Source: Macrostomum lignano (lineage: Eukaryota). From it: DNA of 64,000 nucleotides. A program made the translations under genes and the position numbers. Below, in pieces: positions 1,142 through 15,661 of this stretch. Position 1 is the stretch's first letter, and every line of letters starts with the position of its first letter. The notes beneath the pieces were generated by a model, which was not told the DNA's origin, did no database searches, and saw only the letters and a list, made by a program, of their open reading frames with translations. The stretch lies in assembly GCA_002269645.1 (NCBI GenBank), contig NIVC01003085.1, positions 1-64,000 on the forward strand, read 5' to 3'.

Positions 1142-3689
1142 CAAAGAATGACATCAATACACAGAGCCAGGGATCCTCCTGTGACAGCTGAGAGACGTGG
1201 CTCTGCTAGCTACATACCTCCACCCCCAAGCAAGAAAGATGTATTGCAGCAAAAGGTAGGTTTGCATAGGTGTGATAAAATACTTGTTTTCAGGTTTTGT
1301 GTCTACTGGGAATTGAAGATATTATCTAATGAAGAATTGGGATATTATCTACTGAGGAATTGGGATATTATCTACTGAGGAATTGGGATATTATCTACTG
1401 GGGAATTGAAGATATTATCTAATGAAGAATTGGGATATTATCTACTGAGGAATTGGGGATATTATCTACTGAGGAATTGGGATATTATCTACTGAGGAAT
1501 TGGGGATATTATCTACTGAGGAATTGGGGATATTATCTACTGAGGAATTGGGATATTATCTACTGAGGAATTGGGATATTATCTACTGAGGAATTGGGAT
1601 ATTATCTACTGAGGAATTGGGATATTATCTAATGAAGAATTGGGATATTATCTACTGAGGAATTGGGATATTATCTACTGAGGAATTGGGGTATTATCTA
1701 CTGAGGAATTGGGGATATTATCTACTGAGGAATTGGGGATATTATCTACTGAGGAATTGGGATATTATCTACTGAGGAATTGGGATATTATCTACTGAGG
1801 AATTGGGGTATTATCTACTGAGGAATTGGGGATATTATCTACTGAGGAATTGGGGATATTATCTACTGAGGAATTGGGATATTATCTACTGAGGAATTGG
1901 GATATTATCTACTGAGGAATTGGGGATATTATCTACTGAGGAATTGGGGGTATTATCTACTGAGGAATTGGGGATATTATCTACTGAGGAATTGGGGGTA
2001 TTATCTACTGATGAATTGGGATATTATCTACTGAGGAATTGGGATATTATCTACTGAGGAATTGGGGGTATTATCTACTGATGAATTGGGATATTATCTA
2101 CTGAGGAATTGGGATATTATCTACTGAGGAATTGGGATATTATCTACTGAGGAATTGGGATATTATCTACTGAGGAATTGGGGGTATTATCTACTGGGGA
2201 AATCAGATATTGCTTGAGAAGAAACTGTCATTCTGACTCATTTAGACTACAGATACATTAAATTTTTTTATCCTCTACTGCCTTCGTCCCGCTCAGTAGA
2301 AAAGCGCGCAAATTGTAACTATTATTTAACTCACATTTAAAAACGCCCCTCCCCTAAGGTCGCCGGCGCCGCCACGCCTGGAGACGCCAGGGCGGCCAGT
2401 CTGGACCGCTCGGCGCTACCGCCGCCGCAGCCGAAGCCAAAACCGAAGCCCAAACTGAAGCCGGGCTCCTCTAGCGCCGACGCCGACGAAGCACCTAGAG
2501 TTGTCGACGCTGCCGAGGCCGGCGGCGGAGTCCGGCGCCACTCGGACGAAGACGCCGATCCGGGGCCGGCGGCGGCGGCACTGACCAGTCTGGGCGCGGC
2601 AGCGGCGGCGGCTGGGCCCACTTCTCGGACGTCGACTCGGACACTGGCCTCATCAGCGGCTCGGCCGCTGGCCGCGAGCCTTTGGCCGGCTCGACCGCTG
2701 CCGCAGCATCCACTGGCGGCCGCGGCGCCTCTCGCCGACGTCATCGTCGGGCCGCCTCGTCGTCCTCGGCAGAAGGCGGCGTCGGGGGATCCAAAAACGA
2801 CGACGGCGACGATGTCGATGATGACGATTCGACGTCGGATTCGGACGACTCCGACAGCCAGGCTGGCGACGCGCCCGACGACCGGCACAAGTACGTTGAG
2901 GGCAACGGCGGCGGCGCTGGCGGCTTCGAGGATGAAGAGGACAGCTCGGATCCGCTGGCCATGACCCGCGAGCAGCGCGAGTACTACGCCAACCAATTCC
3001 TCACCCTGTGCCCCAGCCTCACCGGCCGCATCACCGGCCCAGTGGCCAAGCAGTTCTTTGAGAAGTCCCGCCTGCCCCCGCCCGAGCTGTCCCGCATCTG
3101 GGCCCTGTCCGATCGCGACATGGACGGCCAGCTCAACCTGGCCGAGTTCTCCACCGCGATGCACCTGGTCGTGCTGAGGCGCAACAATGTGCCGATACCC
3201 GACAGGCTGCCCCCTGTTGCTGCCGGCTACGAGCCGCTGTCCGACCAGGACGAGGCTTCGCCGCCTCCGACGATGCCGCCGCCACCGCCAATTCACCAGC
3301 AGCAGCCGCCGCCGGAGCCGTCAGTCTTTGGCGGAATTCCTCCAACCGGTGTTGGCGTGCTTCATCCGACCCCTAGGAAACCGACAGCGCATCAGCAGCA
3401 GCATCTCCTGCAACAGCACGCCGACCCGTCCGCTCCGACTGTGCCGCCACGAGCTGCCAGCTATCAGCTGGCGTCCTCCGCTGCTGCCGCCGCCGCTGCT
3501 GCCGACGCCGCCGCTGTTGCCTCCGGCCAGCCGCCCAATCGGGAACGCCTGCTAGCGGCGGTGAAGGCTCAGAAAGAGAAGAATCACACCCTGGTTAGGC
3601 TCAACAATGAACTGGCTGTCGAGCTCAAGGAGGTCACCGAGCAAAGGATTGCCTTGGAATTGGAGTTGGAACGGCTGAAACCGCTTTAA
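1142..3689 (+). CDS. REPS: REPS1/REPS2-like (RalBP1-associated EH-domain protein), 3' part. Exons 1142-1255 and 2359-3689, with an apparent 1-nt frameshift near 2562-2565
   Basis: EH domain (MTREQREYYANQF...AKQFFEKSRLPPPELSRIWALSDRDMDGQLNLAEFSTAMHLVV) and C-terminal coiled coil (KNHTLVRLNNELAVELKEVTEQRIALELELERLKPL*) match my recollection of REPS1/2. Phase-0 sites: ccag|CAA at 1142, AAG|gtagg at 1255, cctaag|GTC at 2359. N-terminal exons would lie outside the window. Confidence 0.85.
1307..2200. repeat. Intronic minisatellite, 23-25 bp unit GAGGAATTGGG(G)ATATTATCTACT
   Basis: Tandem copies read directly. Confidence 0.97.
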
Positions 3690-3865
3690 CAGTCCCCAGT
3701 CCTTAGTCTCCCGTCACTACTCACTGCCTCTGTTATTTTTTGCCTGACAACCAGAATATTAGTGCGGCATAACCTAGATCCTAGATCAATTGATTCTTAT
3801 TGTACAGTTTGTAGCTGCTCTCTGAAAATTATATTTTCTTTCTGGAATTCCTCCTAGTGTGATGG

Positions 3866-4600
3866 ACAAACTACGGTTGGAATTCTGCTCGATTTCTGCT
3901 TTGAATTCTGCTTGATTTCCGGTTGGAATTCTGCTTGATTTCCGGTTGGAATTCTGCTTGGGTTTCCGGTTGGAATTCTACTTGATTTTCGGTTGGAATT
4001 CAACTTGATTTCGGTTGGAAGTCTGCTTGGGTTTCCGGTTGGAATTCTACTTGATTTCCGGTTGAAATTATGCTTTGATTTCCGGTTGGAATTCAACTTG
4101 ATTTCCGGTTGAAATTATGCTTTGATTTCCGGTTGGAATTCAACTTGATTTCCGGTTGGAATTCAACTTGATTTCCGGTTGGAATTCAACTTGATTTCCG
4201 GTTGGAATTCAACTTGATTTCCGGTTGGAATTCAACTTACTTGATTTCCGGTTGGAAGTCTGCTTGATTTCCGGTTGGAAGTCTGCTTGATTTCCGGTTG
4301 GAATTCTGCTTTAATTTCCGGTTGGAAGTCTGCTTTGATTTCCGGTTGGAAGTCTGCTTGATTTCCGGTTGGAAGTCTGCTTTGATTTCCGGTTGGAATT
4401 CTGCTTTGATTTCCGGTTGGAATTCTGCTTTAATTTCCGGTTGGAATTCTGCTTTGATTTCCGGTTGGAATTCTGCTTTGATTTCCGGTTGGAATTCTGC
4501 TTGATTTCCGGTTGGAATTCTGCTTTGATTTCCGGTTGGAATTCTGCTTTGATTTCCGGTTGGAATTCTGCTTTGATTTCCGGTTGGAATTCTGCTTTAT
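3866..4600. repeat. Minisatellite, 22-23 bp unit TTGATTTCCGGTTGGAATTCTGC(T)
   Basis: Tandem copies read directly; explains ORFs 3854-4635. Confidence 0.97.
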
Positions 4601-5249
4601 TGATTCATTGTCTTGCTGCTAATAATAGATTTTGAAAAATATTTGCATCTGTAGCGGTAAACTCTGACTGTATCTGTCTGATTTATCTGGTCTAGTTAAT
4701 CATAAAAGTACAAGCTGTCTTTTTAGATCCGAATGAAAATCGTGCTCTTGGTATTCACCGTGTGCACGTGGCCATATGGCCATGCTTTAGTCAGATTTTA
4801 ATCCATCCCTTGTCTTCAAACTTGCAATGCCAGTCTGTAAATTATTATTTATATTATCTTGTTGAATAAATGCGTTCACCTAATCAGCTAATTAATCTCA
4901 CTTGAGTTGTTTTATTTATTGAGTTTTTTGAACTGATAAATATTTTGTCATCAATTGTACTGACTGTACCTCACACCTGATCTCACGTTGTTAATTTGAA
5001 GGCCTATTTTATTTTGATATCCGTTGATTGTTGCATTAATTACCCTGTCATCAAGTTATAAGTGTTATTGCTGCAACCAGCCACCTGTAGCTGTCTTGCA
5101 AACAATTCAGCGCATTGCCTTCAATATATAATTTGTCTTTTGTCTGCTTTTGCACCCCAGTGCGCAGTTCTCCATGACTAATTGTGGGCAGTGCGCTGGC
5201 ACGTTAATTTGTAGAATCAATTTGGGGTCTCGTGAGTTTTATGCCATTC

Positions 5250-5392
5250 TAATAGTACTGTATAGGGAATTATTAATAGTACTGTATAGGGAATTATTAA
5301 TAGTACTGTATAGGGAATTATTAATAGTACTGTATAGGGAATTATTAATAGTACTGTATAGGAATTATTAATAGTACTGTATAGGGAATTAT
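5250..5392. repeat. Short tandem array, 24 bp unit TAATAGTACTGTATAGGGAATTAT (~6 copies)
   Basis: Read directly. Confidence 0.95.
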
Positions 5393-6449
5393 TATGCCAT
5401 TCTACTCGTAATAGTACTAAAAGTACTTTAGTATGGACAATTCCCGTTCCATACTCCAGTCCAAATTTTAGATTGTTAACTGATTTCTGACGGGCGGGCT
5501 AACAAACTAACCATTGATTTTTTGTGCAGTTGAAATTTATTTTGTTTTGCAATCTACTGAATCACACGTTCTCAGTAGTCACTATTGCACTCGATTCAAC
5601 TAATAATCAAATGCCCGACACTCAAATCTCCCAGCTACAGTCACCGTACTCTCTTCCTTCTCTGTGTGTTTCATAATAATATTTCCAAGTGTAAGATTTT
5701 GGACCAGGATAAATTCAGATTCTCGATTGTACGCGGCGGTAGCGGCTTTCGCACCTTATTTATTATCCTCATCAATGCAAGCACTCTCTCGTTAAGATTT
5801 AATTGAACTTATTACATGCTTATTATATTACAGTACTATAGTACAAATATATACATATAGAGCTCAGATAGAGACTATAATTATAACCCTTGGAATGTTG
5901 CGCAGACCTGCGCGAAGTCTGTGCAAAGCTTACTTTAGGCGTTCACAAATAGCGTAACTGTTATTACTTTGACAAACTTTTATTTATTTTGATTCTTCGT
6001 AATAAGAAACACTATCTGCTCTACTTATGAGTAGCACCCATTGTATGGGATGCTTGACCTTCAAGGCTTTCTGTATCAGCGTGTTGTCGCCAATGCTGCT
6101 TCTTAGTGAGTTACAATTTAACGCAAGTGGAACTCTACATCTAGCAGAAATTGTAAAATTTCTAGCTCTTTGCAAGGATATCTTCAACTTTAAAAGATTG
6201 ACTAGCAATCTAGTGCCCCCTTCGTGGCGCGCAATATGCAAGGAGCAAAAATCATTCATGGAAAACAGTTAAAAAAGCACATTTTCTTAAGAATTCTTCA
6301 GTTTTAAAATCACCTTATTCGAGTAAAATTGTCACGGTCAAAGTCAAAGATGTTTGTTGGCTATGAAGTTTTTTTTTAAAAATTAACAAAGACGACAAAA
6401 TGAAGCTTTCACAATGATAACAGACATTCCCCTAAACAGAAAACATCCC

Positions 6450-7232
6450 AAGACAGCAAGCATCCCCCAGCTGATAGCAAGCATGCCGCAGATAACAAGT
6501 ATCTCCCAGATAGCAAGCACCGCCCTCCAAGAGTAAGCAACCGCATATCATCCCCTGATAACAAGCACCCCCCCAGATAGCAAGCATCCCCTGATAGCAA
6601 GCATTCCCAAGATAGCAAGCATTCCCAGATAGCAAGCATCCCTGATAACAAGCACCCCCCCCCCCAGATAGCAAGCATTCCCCAGATAGCAAGCATCCCC
6701 CAGATAGCAAGCATCCCCTGATAGCAAGCATCCCCTGATAGCAAGCATTCCCAAGATAGCAAGCATTCCCCAGATAGCAAGCATCCCTGATAACAAGCAC
6801 CCCCCCCCCAGATAGCAAGCATTCCCCAGATAGCAAGCATCCCGCAGATAACAAGTATCTCCCAGATAGCAAGCACCGCCCTCCAAGAGTAAGCAACCGC
6901 ATATCATCCCCTGATAACAAGCATCCCCCAGATAGCAAGCATCCCCCCAGATAGCATCCCCCAGATAGCAAGCATCCCCTGATAACAAGCATCCCCCAGA
7001 TAGCAAGCATCCCCCAGATAGCATCCCCCAGATAGCAAGCATCCCCTGATAACAAGCATCCCCAGACAGCAAGCATCCCCCAGACAGCAAGCATCCCCCG
7101 ATAGCAAGCATCCCCTGATAGCAAGCATCCCCCTGATAGCAAGCATCCCCCAGATAGCTAGCATCCCCCAGATAGCATCCCCAGATAGCAAGCATCCCCC
7201 AGATAGCAAGCATCCCCCAGATAGCAAGCATC
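6450..7232. repeat. GATAGCAAGCATCCCCCA (17-19 bp) satellite, left part
   Basis: Read directly; resumes at 13193. Confidence 0.97.
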
Positions 7233-7965
7233 ACTACGTAATGCGCAGATAGAGCAGGGTTTTCAGGCAGATTTGACGCAAAAAACGCAAATTATACTAC
7301 TATCTGAAAATGAAGTAAGTAGTATACAAAAACGCTATCCTAAGCGTGATGTGGCAATATGTAGTTGTAATAATCCATGTGCTCATATTAATACCATGTA
7401 CATTAATCCCTATCTATCTCAAATTGTACATTAATTCCATGTACATTAATCCCTATCCCAAATTGTCTATCCCCAATTCTATATGTACATGTGCATTAAT
7501 CTACAGTGTCATCCCCAGCGCGCGCGCACCAACATTACATGTACAATGCTACATGTACACAGAGGCGAGAATTACTAATCTCATCTACTACCAAATGAGT
7601 CAACTAACCGTGTAGCGTACATCATGTATAAGTATTTACAATGAAGATATATTTACATTTAATCAGTAGCATATTACAGGAAATAATTTATGTACAGCAT
7701 TACCAGCAAATAGAATATACAGAAAATTTTACATTGTTTTTCATTAATTTTCTTTTCATAAATAATTTTAAACAAGTTTGACACGCAAAATATGTACAAT
7801 AGATTTTTACATTGGCAATTTCGCTGCATACAATACAAAAATGCTTTATGTACATTTGTATAGTAGTATGTAACTCTTCATTAATTTAACATGCAAAATA
7901 TGTACAACAATAAATAGATTTTACTCAGTCAAATTTAACAAGATATTTATTAAGCAAGGGCCACA

Positions 7966-10854
7966 TTATTTATAACCATAAGGCCTGCTGCAGGCCCCGT
8001 ACACGCGCTTCGTCAGGACGCGCTGAAACGTCTTGTCCATATTGATTGTGTGTATGGTACAAGACGCCTTGTCGCGCCTAAACTGAAGCTGCGGCAGCTG
8101 CAGGGAGCCGCCGTGTAGTAGGGCACTGCGCAATTCATCGCTGCGCTCCCGAATCTCCGGAGTCAGGCGGATGCCCTTGCACTTCAGGACCTGACTCCGG
8201 GCACCGGCCGCATCCTCGACAATGTAAGTGTAGAGTTTGGGCCCCCCACTTACAAAGTCGGTCATCCGGCTGCCTGCGGGCACCTCATCGGTCCACATTC
8301 CGAGGCTCGTGCCATGGGGCGGCTCCCATTGGCCCTCGGAATGCCGGTAAACGACCCTGTGTGGGAGAGAAAACGAGATAATTGCTAACTATTTACATGT
8401 AATCAATTCTAAAATAATTTTCCCAATGCAATACTTACGAGTCAGTGTCGCAGTAAATGGCCCGTTCGCCGAGCCCCTCCAATGCCTCATACAGGCGCAG
8501 CCGGGCCTGAGTGGTCGTAAAGACCCCGATTGGCACATTGGAGTACCGGAACGGCCGCTGATTAAAATAGCGGTGCCGGTACTCTAGCAGCATAAACTCG
8601 CTGCCAATCGGTTCGCAGGCCTTGACTTTGAGGTTGGGGTCGGTCAGCCGGGCGAGCCAGTCCTCGTAGCTGGATACAATTTCTGTCGATGTCAGGTCAT
8701 CACGCTGACAAAATTTGCCCCAGAGCCTGTGTGTTGTGAAAAGAAGTGCTACTGTTAGTAGAAGAAGAAAATCATTTAAAATACAAAAATTTATGAATAC
8801 TTACGAATTCAAAAAGATTTTCGCTACAAAGCGAAGTCCTGGGTTGGGCTCGACCTTGTCCAGCGTGACGCCCTCCTTGGCGTAAAAATCGGCAATGTAG
8901 GCGGCCTTGTCTTCATCCGACATGCCGGGGGAACCGCTCGACTCAGCCTTCAGCTTGAGAAAGGTGCTGACATAGTCACTGAACAGACCGGTCCGCTTCT
9001 CTGTCCAGTAGGCCAGCGCGTGCACCGCCTGCAGCCGGTAGCCCAACTGGAAGGCCTTCCGCAGCTCCGGCGTTGCCCAGGTACCAGTCAGTGCCCGCTG
9101 CTGGTCAGAGTGGTCGCAGCACTCGCCGCACTGCTGCTCCATACAGGTGCGGCAAAGCCCAAAAAAGAGCTTCTTTTGCACCCTGTAGGGCAGCAGCGGA
9201 ATGTGCAAATCTGACGGCGGCAGCACTGTCACCTTGGCAATGCCAAAGTAGCTAGCCAGCGCGTCAGAATCGAGCACTTGCGGCGTCGGATGTTGCACCG
9301 GGTGGCCAATCGGGTATGGGTCTTTCGACTGCACCGTCGGGTACAGAGAGACCTGCCAGTTGAAATAAAGCATTATTTTTTTTCATAAACTGTATTTTTT
9401 GCAAAATATTCTACTATATTAGTAGTATCGCTACTCACCACATCCCGATATTTGAGAGTCTCAGTCTCGCTGGCCACAGCATGCGGGATAAAGCACTCTA
9501 CGCGGCCACCGTAGAGCGCATCCTCCATCTTGAGCGGAGCGCGCAGATGTGCAGTTGCGGCGATAAAGTCGGCCTGCGACGCCAATACAGTGTCGTACTC
9601 ATGCTCCCAAATGACTCGAACACTGTAATTGTGCCGCTCCAACTCGCGAGTGAACCACTCAGTCTCGTGGCGAATATGGCTCAGAGGCTGCCGTTTGAGC
9701 GGGTGGACGACATCCTGATCGGGCATACACTGCTCGCAGCCATGGTAGAAACAGCCATGAAACTGCAAAACAGTGTTGCTCGCCTCATCGAAGCCGTCCA
9801 CCTTGCGGCCGAGAATGACAGCCTCGCCGCCAGTCGAGTCGCAGGTTCGCAGCCGCCCGCCAAATTCGGTGGCATTCAAATAGGCCAGCCACTTGCGCGC
9901 CTTGAACGACTGCTGGTCGGCCTGCCGGGCAATCACGCCGACCGAGTTGGGCTCCATAAACCGGGTGGTGAAAACGGCCATTGCCAAACTGGCAATCGTA
10001 TTGGCCTGAACAAATGGTTCCAGGCCGTCGCAAATTTCACCAATTATTGCCCTGTACTTGATGCAGCCCTCGCGAAGCAGGACTGTGTCGCTCAAACAAT
10101 AATCGAGATATTCCCGATTAAAGTTGAACAACTCGCCCTGTCGCGAGGCTAGCCAAGCACAGATTGAGTCATAGTCCTTGTTCGCTTTGCCGCCATAATA
10201 TTCAATAGCCGGGTAGGGGCCAACGTAGTTCCAATTAGCCGGCTTGTTAAACTCGTGGGGAAAGGTCCCCTTGGCCAGCTTTGTGTTAGCGAGCCCCAGA
10301 GCTTTGGGGAATTGCGCAAGCGGGATTGGTATAAAATTTAATGAATCTTTAAATACCAATTTATCCACCGTCATGCTCATTAGCCGGCTGCCCTGGAACA
10401 GTACTTGTGGCCGCTTCTTGGCCAGGCCGTTGAGTAGAGCGCCAAGCAGTAGGAACGAATCGTAGCCTGATGCATTGTGCGCTACAACAATGGCGCCGCC
10501 TCGGAAAGCTGTGCTCAGCCAGGTGAAAAACGCATTCAGCGAGGCCGGGCCCACAGCCACAAAATCGGCCATTTGGCAGGCGCAGTCTGAGTGGCTGACG
10601 CAATTGGAGAATTCCTCCCCCAGATCGCGGCCAGTCAGACAATTGGCGGCGCTATGCAGGCCATTGCAGAGGCGGCAAGTCTCGCGCGGAAACGCCCGGC
10701 CGGAGCAGGTCTCGCAGCACGTGACGGCAGTCACCAGGTGCACGTGATGCTGCTTCTCCTCGTCCGTGTATGTTTCCGTATCGTAGAACACGTACGGCAT
10801 AGTCGAAGCTTTCACTTTGGGAGCCTTGACGGAGCACAAATGCGGGCATGTCAA
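7966..10854 (-). CDS. polB: Protein-primed family B DNA polymerase (5'-truncated). Exons 10854-9439, 9352-8805, 8726-8439, 8356-7966
   Basis: Exo I (FYDTET), Exo II (AHNASGYD), Exo III (YCLSDTVLL), Vsr-like insert (VDGFD...FHGCFYHGC...IWEHE), YGGRVE, motif A (YRDV|VSLYP), motif B (KIFLNS|LWGKF), motif C (YCDTDS|VVY) and GPKLY. Exon lengths 1416+548+288+391=2643 nt, in frame. Confidence 0.93.
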
Positions 10855-10892
10855 GTGCCCACTGTGTAAACAGTACGACGAGGCCGGCTCGC

Positions 10893-12459
10893 AGATGGAG
10901 GATGCGCTCTACGGTGGCCGCGTAGAGTGCTTTATCCCGCATGCTGTGGCCAGCGAGACTGAGACTCTCAAATATCGGGATGTGGTGAGTAGCGATACTA
11001 CTAATATAGTAGAATATTTTGCAAAAAATACAGTTTATGAAAAAAAAATAATGCTTTATTTCAACTGGCAGGTCTCTCTGTACCCGACGGTGCAGTCGAA
11101 AGACCCATACCCGATTGGCCACCCGGTGCAACATCCGACGCCGCAAGTGCTCGATTCTGACGCGCTGGCTAGCTACTTTGGCATTGCCAAGGTGACAGTG
11201 CTGCCGCCGTCAGATTTGCACATTCCGCTGCTGCCCTACAGGGTGCAAAAGAAGCTCTTTTTTGGGCTTTGCCGCACCTGTATGGAGCAGCAGTGCGGCG
11301 AGTGCTGCGACCACTCTGACCAGCAGCGGGCACTGACTGGTACCTGGGCAACGCCGGAGCTGCGGAAGGCCTTCCAGTTGGGCTACCGGCTGCAGGCGGT
11401 GCACGCGCTGGCCTACTGGACAGAGAAGCGGACCGGTCTGTTCAGTGACTATGTCAGCACCTTTCTCAAGCTGAAGGCTGAGTCGAGCGGTTCCCCCGGC
11501 ATGTCGGATGAAGACAAGGCCGCCTACATTGCCGATTTTTACGCCAAGGAGGGCGTCACGCTGGACAAGGTCGAGCCCAACCCAGGACTTCGCTTTGTAG
11601 CGAAAATCTTTTTGAATTCGTAAGTATTCATAAATTTTTGTATTTTAAATGATTTTCTTCTTCTACTAACAGTAGCACTTCTTTTCACAACACACAGGCT
11701 CTGGGGCAAATTTTGTCAGCGTGATGACCTGACATCGACAGAAATTGTATCCAGCTACGAGGACTGGCTCGCCCGGCTGACCGACCCCAACCTCAAAGTC
11801 AAGGCCTGCGAACCGATTGGCAGCGAGTTTATGCTGCTAGAGTACCGGCACCGCTATTTTAATCAGCGGCCGTTCCGGTACTCCAATGTGCCAATCGGGG
11901 TCTTTACGACCACTCAGGCCCGGCTGCGCCTGTATGAGGCATTGGAGGGGCTCGGCGAACGGGCCATTTACTGCGACACTGACTCGTAAGTATTGCATTG
12001 GGAAAATTATTTTAGAATTGATTACATGTAAATAGTTAGCAATTATCTCGTTTTCTCTCCCACACAGGGTCGTTTACCGGCATTCCGAGGGCCAATGGGA
12101 GCCGCCCCATGGCACGAGCCTCGGAATGTGGACCGATGAGGTGCCCGCAGGCAGCCGGATGACCGACTTTGTAAGTGGGGGGGCCCAAACTCTACACTTA
12201 CATTGTCGAGGATGCGGCCGGTGCCCGGAGTCAGGTCCTGAAGTGCAAGGGCATCCGCCTGACTCCGGAGATTCGGGAGCGCAGCGATGAATTGCGCAGT
12301 GCCCTACTACACGGCGGCTCCCTGCAGCTGCCGCAGCTTCAGTTTAGGCGCGACAAGGCGTCTTGTACCATACACACAATCAATATGGACAAGACGTTTC
12401 AGCGCGTCCTGACGAAGCGCGTGTACGGGGCCTGCAGCAGGCCTTATGGTTATAAATAA
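10893..12459 (+). pseudogene. polB: Mirror copy of the pPolB polymerase-domain exons (introns 10985-11071, 11620-11697, 11986-12067); lacks exonuclease; G7 versus G6 run at ~12177-12183 shifts the last exon
   Basis: Reverse complement of the left arm; same splice sites; AATAAA at 12474-12479. Confidence 0.88.
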
Positions 12460-13192
12460 TGTGGCCCTTGCTTAATAAATATCTTGTTAAATTTGACTGA
12501 GTAAAATCTATTTATTGTTGTACATATTTTGCATGTTAAATTAATGAAGAGTTACATACTACTATACAAATGTACATAAAGCATTTTTGTATTGTATGCA
12601 GCGAAATTGCCAATGTAAAAATCTATTGTACATATTTTGCGTGTCAAACTTGTTTAAAATTATTTATGAAAAGAAAATTAATGAAAAACAATGTAAAATT
12701 TTCTGTATATTCTATTTGCTGGTAATGCTGTACATAAATTATTTCCTGTAATATGCTACTGATTAAATGTAAATATATCTTCATTGTAAATACTTATACA
12801 TGATGTACGCTACACGGTTAGTTGACTCATTTGGTAGTAGATGAGATTAGTAATTCTCGCCTCTGTGTACATGTAGCATTGTACATGTAATGTTGGTGCG
12901 CGCGCGCTGGGGATGACACTGTAGATTAATGCACATGTACATATAGAATTGGGGATAGACAATTTGGGATAGGGATTAATGTACATGGAATTAATGTACA
13001 ATTTGAGATAGATAGGGATTAATGTACATGGTATTAATATGAGCACATGGATTATTACAACTACATATTGCCACATCACGCTTAGGATAGCGTTTTTGTA
13101 TACTACTTACTTCATTTTCAGATAGTAGTATAATTTGCGTTTTTTGCGTCAAATCTGCCTGAAAACCCTGCTCTATCTGCGCATTACGTAGT

Positions 13193-13500
13193 AGCATCCC
13201 CCCAGATAGCATCCCCCAGATAACAAGCATCCCCCAGATAGCAAGCATCCCCCCAGATAGCATCCCCCAGATAGCAAGCATCCCCTGATAACAAGCATCC
13301 CCCAGACAGCAAGCATCCCCCAGACAGCAAGCATCCCCCAGATAGCAAGCATCCCCTGATAGCAAGCATCCCCCAGACAGCAAGCATCCCCCAGACAGCA
13401 AGCATCCCCCAGATAGCAAGCATCCCCTGATAGCAAGCATCCCGGCCCCTGATAGCAAGCATCCCCCCTGATAGCAAGCATCCCCCCAGATAGCAAGCAT
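13193..13500. repeat. GATAGCAAGCATCCCCCA satellite, right part
   Basis: Read directly. Confidence 0.97.

Positions 13501-15244: not shown

Positions 15245-15661
<417 letters not shown>

Follow-up and report, generated by a model that had tools for sequence, protein, structure and literature searches.

Spliceosomal introns in the three catalytic motifs of a Polinton-type DNA polymerase of Macrostomum lignano, and intron-like inserts at motif B in other Polinton lineages

The origin of new spliceosomal introns is a long-standing open question, and the locus described here raises it in a specific form: how did a viral-type DNA polymerase gene come to carry an intron inside each of its three catalytic motifs, A, B and C? 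The gene encodes a protein-primed family B polymerase (pPolB, PF03175) as found in Polintons/Mavericks, and lies in the first 64,000 nucleotides of Macrostomum lignano contig NIVC01003085.1 (assembly GCA_002269645.1), the stretch of DNA that was analysed and that we refer to as the window.

The copy in the window is a fold-back derivative of an element family designated A (Table 1), and its mirror set of introns on the forward strand is explained by the complementarity of the two arms. This copy is without the promoter, the start codon and the first ~415 codons of pPolB; missing its 5' end, it likely cannot be expressed, and the spliced contigs described below would derive from full-length copies, in which the long pPolB exon measures 1.97 kb (657 codons). 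The possibility that the 2.3-kb palindrome is an assembly artefact was ruled out, since it stops at the element ends and has a 6-bp duplication and differing flanks, and it is further weakened by comparable fold-backs elsewhere in the genome; the fold-back structure of C4430 matches that of the window element. Fold-back derivatives of family A and of its sister family B are numerous, mostly with 6-bp duplications (L090 168-9729; L091 314-9673; L071+L072; L096; L097; L104; window 7233-13192), and one is a perfect 9.6-kb palindrome. They probably arose by template switching during protein-primed replication and were nonetheless integrated.

Table 1 Features of the fold-back element and its pPolB remnant (window coordinates)
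Feature	Position	Strand	Remarks
Fold-back (palindromic) deletion derivative of family A element, 5,960 bp	7233..13192	.	ends ACTACG...CGTAGT
6-bp target-site duplication AGCATC, left copy, within a satellite	7227..7232	+	
6-bp target-site duplication, right copy	13193..13198	+	
Left inverted arm, 2.3 kb, native terminus and 3' part of pPolB	7233..9530	.	99.9% to right arm
Right inverted arm, mirror of 3' pPolB exons and introns	10893..13192	.	two single-base indels relative to left arm
Final pPolB exon, stop codon included	7966..8356	-	
Intron 3, 82 nt, phase 2 in Ser codon of motif C	8357..8438	-	
Exon from motif B to motif C	8439..8726	-	
Intron 2, 78 nt, phase 2 in Ser codon of motif B	8727..8804	-	GTAAGT..CAG
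Exon from motif A to motif B, under purifying selection	8805..9352	-	dN/dS 0.07-0.12
Intron 1, 86 nt, phase 0, inside motif A	9353..9438	-	GTGAGT..CAG
Long pPolB exon, remaining part: exonuclease motifs, Vsr-like domain, to motif A	9439..10847	-	PF03175, E 9e-15
Vsr-like nuclease domain (predicted fold), inserted in pPolB	9571..9930	-	
Intron 1, mirror copy, 87 nt	10985..11071	+	
Intron 2, mirror copy	11620..11697	+	
Intron 3, mirror copy	11986..12067	+	

A first reading of the window, made from the sequence alone, had reported three spliceosomal introns, one per catalytic motif, and these were present as GT-AG, AT-rich interruptions in every copy inspected. Their G+C content is 27, 27 and 31% for introns 1, 2 and 3, against 56-60% for the exons, and their removal restores the frame and the motifs, as expected of spliceosomal (U2-type) introns. 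The count of three is right for the catalytic motifs but not for the complete gene, which has six introns; the other three sit upstream in the N-terminal region, outside the catalytic motifs, one after a short first exon, one early in the region and one farther into it, the last, by inspection, in the terminal-protein/vOTU region of the layout given in PMC11161782. All six positions are common to families A and B. For family A, introns 1-3 were found in every stretch with both flanks matched (19, 21 and 19 rows, counts that include near-duplicates) and no row was intron-less; their lengths range over 81-116, 66-78 and 74-114 nt, respectively, drifting through all three frames, with a damaged donor or acceptor at one intron in five rows in all and at two in L025. 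In family B, GT..AG ends were present at all three motif introns in 12/12 copies. The middle exon, from motif A to motif B, has a dN/dS of 0.07-0.10 within family A (5 of 8 copies scored, 3 being left out for length) and of 0.12 between the families. Many UniRef gene models of Macrostomum lignano already splice the motif junctions.

Junction reads had been suggested as a check by that first reading, and intron-skipping contigs were recovered from two runs, X1 and X2, both from one study and presumed here to be RNA, no run being recorded as such. When placed on L078, a near-identical full-length copy that served as the reference for their joints, these contigs leave out precisely 82, 78 and 87 nt within the motifs, together with 78 nt at one N-terminal intron, with CT..AC ends, which correspond to GT..AG on the minus strand. 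Intron 1 is skipped in X1 and X2, intron 2 in X2, and intron 3 in both, its joint in X2 being bridged by 154 and 164 letters; intron 3 alone has more than 31 letters on both sides, the joints of introns 1 and 2 having fewer than 31 on the short side. Unspliced coverage is present alongside the skipped joints, and X15 and X18 read through the introns with no intron-skipping joint among those listed (nine joints are not shown). Intron 1 was also considered as a protein insert and rejected, its length being a multiple of 3 in 10/19 rows but not in the others and the stretch being skipped in X1/X2. As AT-rich GT-AG inserts of 66-116 nt and variable frame, the interruptions are unlike homing introns or inteins; the introns of pPolB are spliceosomal. 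Dependence of the polymerase on the host spliceosome follows from having introns, and by our reading of the sequence retention of intron 2 or 3 would put a stop right past the Ser codon; for the associated proposal of splicing control, nothing observed shows regulation.

A DNA search in which 40 of 117 candidates were scored gave 43 matches, with identities of 81-100%. In its complete copies family A measures ~9.5 kb, and family B, represented by 45 full-length rows with 67-70% identity to the middle exon, has elements of 8.7-9.1 kb with arms up to 99.7% identical; the A/B elements measured span 8.7-9.6 kb. Protein identity between them is 53-74% per exon, and the closest protein matches are Macrostomum lignano UniRef entries that are 95% identical to a family A frame. 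The element ends are of the Polinton/Maverick kind in 11 elements, both ends being read in 5/12 family B stretches. Two rve integrases of this genome matched L158 and L210 but gave no match at E<=0.01 in 19 A/B stretches, a negative that leaves room for a very divergent or intron-split integrase. Queries for packaging ATPase and minor capsid, drawn from this genome's canonical Mavericks, matched nothing in the same 19 stretches, and the sole major capsid (MCP) matches lay beyond the element, at the edges of L085/L086. We therefore file A and B as Polinton-derived elements rather than as full members. They are unusual hosts for these introns: ~9 kb in length, with a polymerase under purifying selection and 6-bp duplications, and with no integrase detected.

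We then asked how the six introns are placed within the polymerase. Placement proved to be non-random, with p from 3e-5 to 0.03 depending on the test, all tests being post hoc, with the pattern already seen. If six introns were placed at random, the probability of hitting each of A, B and C is 3e-5, and that of hitting 3 or more of 8 named motifs is 6e-4. When positions were ranked by conservation against 83 outside homologues, the motif introns fell in the top 0.2-11%, depending on the window used, and the N-terminal introns (ranks 0.89-0.99) among roughly the 10% of protein positions with the lowest conservation, giving a Fisher p of 0.007-0.03 over all six. Ordinary spliceosomal introns show no preference for conserved sites, according to PMC2814812. 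One way to arrive at such a pattern is gain anywhere in the gene, followed by persistence mainly where imprecise loss would kill the enzyme, and the many deletion derivatives thrown off by the family show the element to be deletion-prone. However, the three N-terminal introns, at poorly conserved positions, are equally long-lived, the three exonuclease motifs and equally conserved blocks have none, and survival bias gives no reason why motif B in particular should be affected in other lineages; we regard it as rather unlikely.

The question of whether the positions are ancestral has a divided answer: they are ancestral to the two families in this genome, but not to the wider clade, in which their nearest relatives are uninterrupted. 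Canonical Mavericks of the same genome combine an rve integrase with uninterrupted pPolB frames of 1,125-1,478 codons, and C234, a degenerate relative at 30-41%, has motifs A, B and C all uninterrupted.

Outside this genome, a metagenome scan, from which the best 80 of 384 pPolB loci were kept, revealed that ten of these 80 carry one insert each in motif B, 63-90 nt long, AT-rich and, at the DNA level, intron-like. The inserts lie at Trp phase 1 (L152, as well as L158, L159, L160, L197 and L210), at Trp phase 2 (L183) or at Gly phase 1 (L156, L190 and, ambiguously, L201, which has no canonical acceptor at the in-frame position), that is, at three points within 10 nt, all distinct from the A/B point. 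L158 and L210 are integrase-bearing Polintons. Neither motif A nor motif C had an insert in the best 80 of the 384 outside loci. L198 (two, at ~297-380 and 2038-2140) and L228 (one, at ~990-1115) have their intron-like inserts elsewhere in the gene, outside motifs A, B and C, and none in motif B. Among 257 protein homologues, protein ends cluster at motif B, and two are at motif C; at the protein level only, an AG|GT split of the Ser codon in motif B is compatible with where P0058, P0116 and P0186 end, and ACA G|GT in motif C with where P0251 and P0254 end. Scans with the A/B exon alignment found no close outside relatives, and viral-contig scans with P0042 and P0116 found none either. A pattern search for motif B plus a donor gave three matches, which were judged to be chance.

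On phylogenetic trees, the insert carriers sit among uninterrupted relatives. A 149-row tree (of 176 sequences, 20 near-duplicates and 7 that were too short, including L190, L201, L228 and the C234 copy, were left out) required 4 changes for the DNA-level cases and 11 when the protein-end cases were added. A 39-row tree, composed of the flagged rows and their two nearest intron-free rows, gave 5 state changes, and a single clade of carriers was rejected (AU p 7e-77). Such change counts do not separate gain from loss, but the four different insertion points favour separate gains. Judging from the trees, the introns were probably gained on several occasions, each time following divergence from sister lineages whose frames are uninterrupted. 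With inserts at several points, in carriers that are not a single clade, motif B appears to be a place where introns recur. The finding is real and broader than first seen, extended by the motif-B inserts in further lineages, and non-random gain at conserved motifs, part of what the first reading had proposed, gains support from both the position tests and these independent inserts.

It might be argued that nuclear elements, with a host-like habit, simply scatter introns and that the motif pattern was picked out afterwards. The tests are indeed post hoc, the outside scan was biased toward motif B (its query alignment came from proteins ending at motifs B or C, with L152 as the first row, only the best 80 of 384 loci were kept, and the ranking works against upstream introns), and off-motif inserts exist. 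Against this, when L152 is set aside and the gene is considered from motif B onward, 3/4 lineage-level inserts fall within a 10-codon window, with p 3e-4, or 5e-3 if L156 and L158 represent one event. Chance or ascertainment is accordingly an explanation to which we give little credence.

The first reading had also suggested that introns 2 and 3 are related, introner-like gains, that is, copies of one mobile intron. In the window copy the two do share phase, Ser context and terminal words, but the shared 5' and 3' words do not persist across other copies or in the sister family. With z 2.4 and an uncorrected p of 0.014, as one of 120 pairs, their resemblance is not significant, and it is no closer than that of intron 2 to the insert of L156, an unrelated pair (p 0.004); in family B, introns 2 and 3 are unalike (p 0.58). 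A genome search for introns akin to introns 2 and 3 led to element copies at all but one of 28 places, and no family of similar introns at unrelated loci was found. An old kinship could have been erased, because orthologous introns of families A and B are also unalignable. With no relationship detected between introns 2 and 3, an introner origin is without support and, in our view, highly improbable.

Another explanation is that the protein-fixed words of motifs B and C resemble splice sites, such that ordinary gain by duplication or repair would succeed there with greater frequency in every lineage. Asn-Ser and Thr-Asp give CAG, and Gly-Lys-Phe gives a donor-like word; GT or GC follows the Gly phase 1 sites known from DNA, the AG|GT and ACA G|GT fits of the protein ends described above point the same way, and Gly-Lys is written GGT AAR in 10/39 intron-free loci (15 of 54 loci being left out). 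However, the MAG|R pattern is absent from the Trp sites and from those of families A and B (TC|G, GTG|G), such short words occur throughout a 3.8-kb gene, and any depletion of GGTAAG at motif B is not clear-cut, with 2 occurrences against 4.1 expected. We hold this explanation to be unlikely, yet worth keeping in view.

Motif preference is typical of homing elements. Inteins of archaeal PolB occupy the same three motifs. The introns might accordingly be relics, with homing inteins or self-splicing introns that once resided in the motifs having been replaced by, or having decayed into, spliceosomal introns. The preference itself is described in PMC2814812, and intein-primed intron gain is proposed in PMC3749507. 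None of the best 80 of 384 loci showed a long insert, an intein or a structured intron at any of the three motifs, and the motif-B inserts lie at four or more points rather than at one allelic site, which makes relics improbable as a source.

The reading that we favour, with a probability of roughly 0.37, is that the motif introns of pPolB arose from cutting by Polinton nucleases and repair into spliceable filler that blocks recutting. Sequence-specific nucleases of competing Polintons would cut the most conserved polymerase DNA; the cutter would be a Vsr-like or HNH-type domain carried by Polinton polymerases; repair of the cut would leave spliceable filler, and hence a new intron; and the intron would then block further cutting and so confer immunity. 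The occurrence of apparent introns in the same motif of unrelated elements would be explained if conserved stretches are repeatedly cut and repaired, and a cluster of neighbouring insertion points is what we infer to be expected from repair around a cut. The version that assigns the cutting to the Vsr-like (or HNH-type) domain, with the resulting introns giving immunity, is put forward still more tentatively. More speculative, and in our judgement doubtful, is the general proposal that Polintons fight with polymerase-borne nucleases aimed at motif DNA, with introns recurring at the cuts as heritable immunity.

The candidate cutter was characterized by structure prediction. The domain model (pLDDT 94.5) aligns with Vsr 1cw0 at Z 9.6 (rmsd 3.4, 107 aligned), a score tied by a mitoribosomal protein chain, 9g6k, that is not nuclease-annotated (Z 9.5), and with the homing endonuclease I-Bth0305I at Z 7.4 (rmsd 3.8, 84 aligned); searches of PDB and Pfam with its sequence yielded no name. 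The pPolB insert is thus predicted to have a Vsr fold and is a putative nuclease, its activity and target being likewise putative. The I-Bth0305I-like predicted fold in this very polymerase speaks for the cutting model. VSR and HNH inserts are described in 10.1101/2023.08.22.554363, the VSR insertion in pPolB being that of marine nematode and mollusc elements, and such polymerase insertions are read as homing-endonuclease or intein invasions in PMC11161782; intron and intein are mutually exclusive at one codon in the case reported in PMC3749507. Several observations count against the cutting model. Three motifs would need three specificities, and many relatives free of introns have the domain, a motif characteristic of it occurring in 182/294 fetched proteins, most of them without sign of introns. 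The N-terminal introns occupy poorly conserved sites, the inserts of L198 and L228 are off-motif, and none of the best 80 of 384 outside loci has an intron in motif A or C. If the general proposal of nuclease conflict is true, motif B would amount to nature's own replicated test of how introns are born de novo, extended here to motifs A, B and C of a self-replicating element without integrase or capsid. Ten codons long and acquiring unrelated introns at adjacent points in several lineages, motif B also offers a well-delimited site for testing models of break-repair, proto-splice sites and survival.

Families A and B resemble the animal Polintons/Mavericks (Polintoviricetes) of the nematode/mollusc VSR type, as presented in 10.1101/2023.08.22.554363, in their PF03175 pPolB with exonuclease and A/B/C motifs, and share with those VSR-insert Polintons the terminal inverted repeats, the 6-bp target-site duplication and, in some copies, a PC4-like gene. 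They differ from Polintons in size (~9 kb versus 13-25 kb) and in having no detected integrase, capsid or ATPase, and their ends read ACTAC..GTAGT versus AGTAGT..ACTACT in canonical elements of this genome. The six introns of their pPolB contrast with none in intact vertebrate Mavericks (PMC8097293) and with a nematode element whose core genes are called intronless and whose cargo genes have introns (10.1101/2022.07.12.499685). Like the motif-targeting homing elements of PMC2814812, the A/B introns insert in the most conserved motifs of an essential gene, but they are short, GT-AG and devoid of coding capacity. In the intein/intron polymorphism of Bathycoccus PRP8 (PMC3749507), a spliceosomal intron sits at a position linked to a homing element; that case, however, involves a host gene, one codon and an observed intein, whereas here a viral-type gene is affected in several lineages and no intein was observed. 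Dinoflagellate Maverick-Polinton-like introners (10.1101/2025.03.18.643946) are also intron-type inserts in Polinton-like elements, but are high-copy related transposons, while the A/B introns are mutually unrelated and old. No description of introns in Polinton pPolB motifs was found in the literature covered, which also took in PMC12220804, PMC5718144 and 10.64898/2026.10.13.758929, the Kapitonov/Jurka and Pritham papers, subscription papers, Repbase and supplements being beyond its scope. Since Polinton core genes are sought as intron-free open frames, intron-split lineages will be scored as degraded or missed.

Several further features of these elements were observed. L021 279-9764 and L035 623-9437 are ~9-kb elements with pPolB, no detected integrase or capsid, and the ACTAC..GTAGT ends. 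Opposite pPolB, family A variants differ (L021 6800-8900) in having either a PC4-like gene or an AT-rich repetitive stretch in which no gene was identified, and in family B an intron-like AT-rich GT-AG stretch lies directly past the PC4-like frame (L035 ~7933-8006, +). A search for a partner segment with integrase or capsid genes and the same termini gave ~20 matches to the terminal inverted repeats only, which were fold-backs, solo ends or copies with other elements inserted. A 912-aa frame in L094 was ruled out as an integrase; it belongs to an inserted LINE, whose reverse transcriptase/RNase H (4287-7022) is in frame within the first pPolB exon of a family A copy. The family B copies L085 and L086 seemingly lie within the major capsid gene of another Maverick. 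In L099 352-7935, a family A terminus adjoins genes for integrase, capsid and ATPase that belong to an AT-rich family of canonical Mavericks, an arrangement representing either nesting or a hybrid, and an A-type end is also joined to canonical Maverick genes in C4099. In the window itself, GC-rich host exon(s) at 2341-3690 (+) encode what presumably resembles an EH domain, and a histone H3 gene, recognized by reading the sequence, occupies 15253-15661 (+), followed by a stem-loop-like 3' element.
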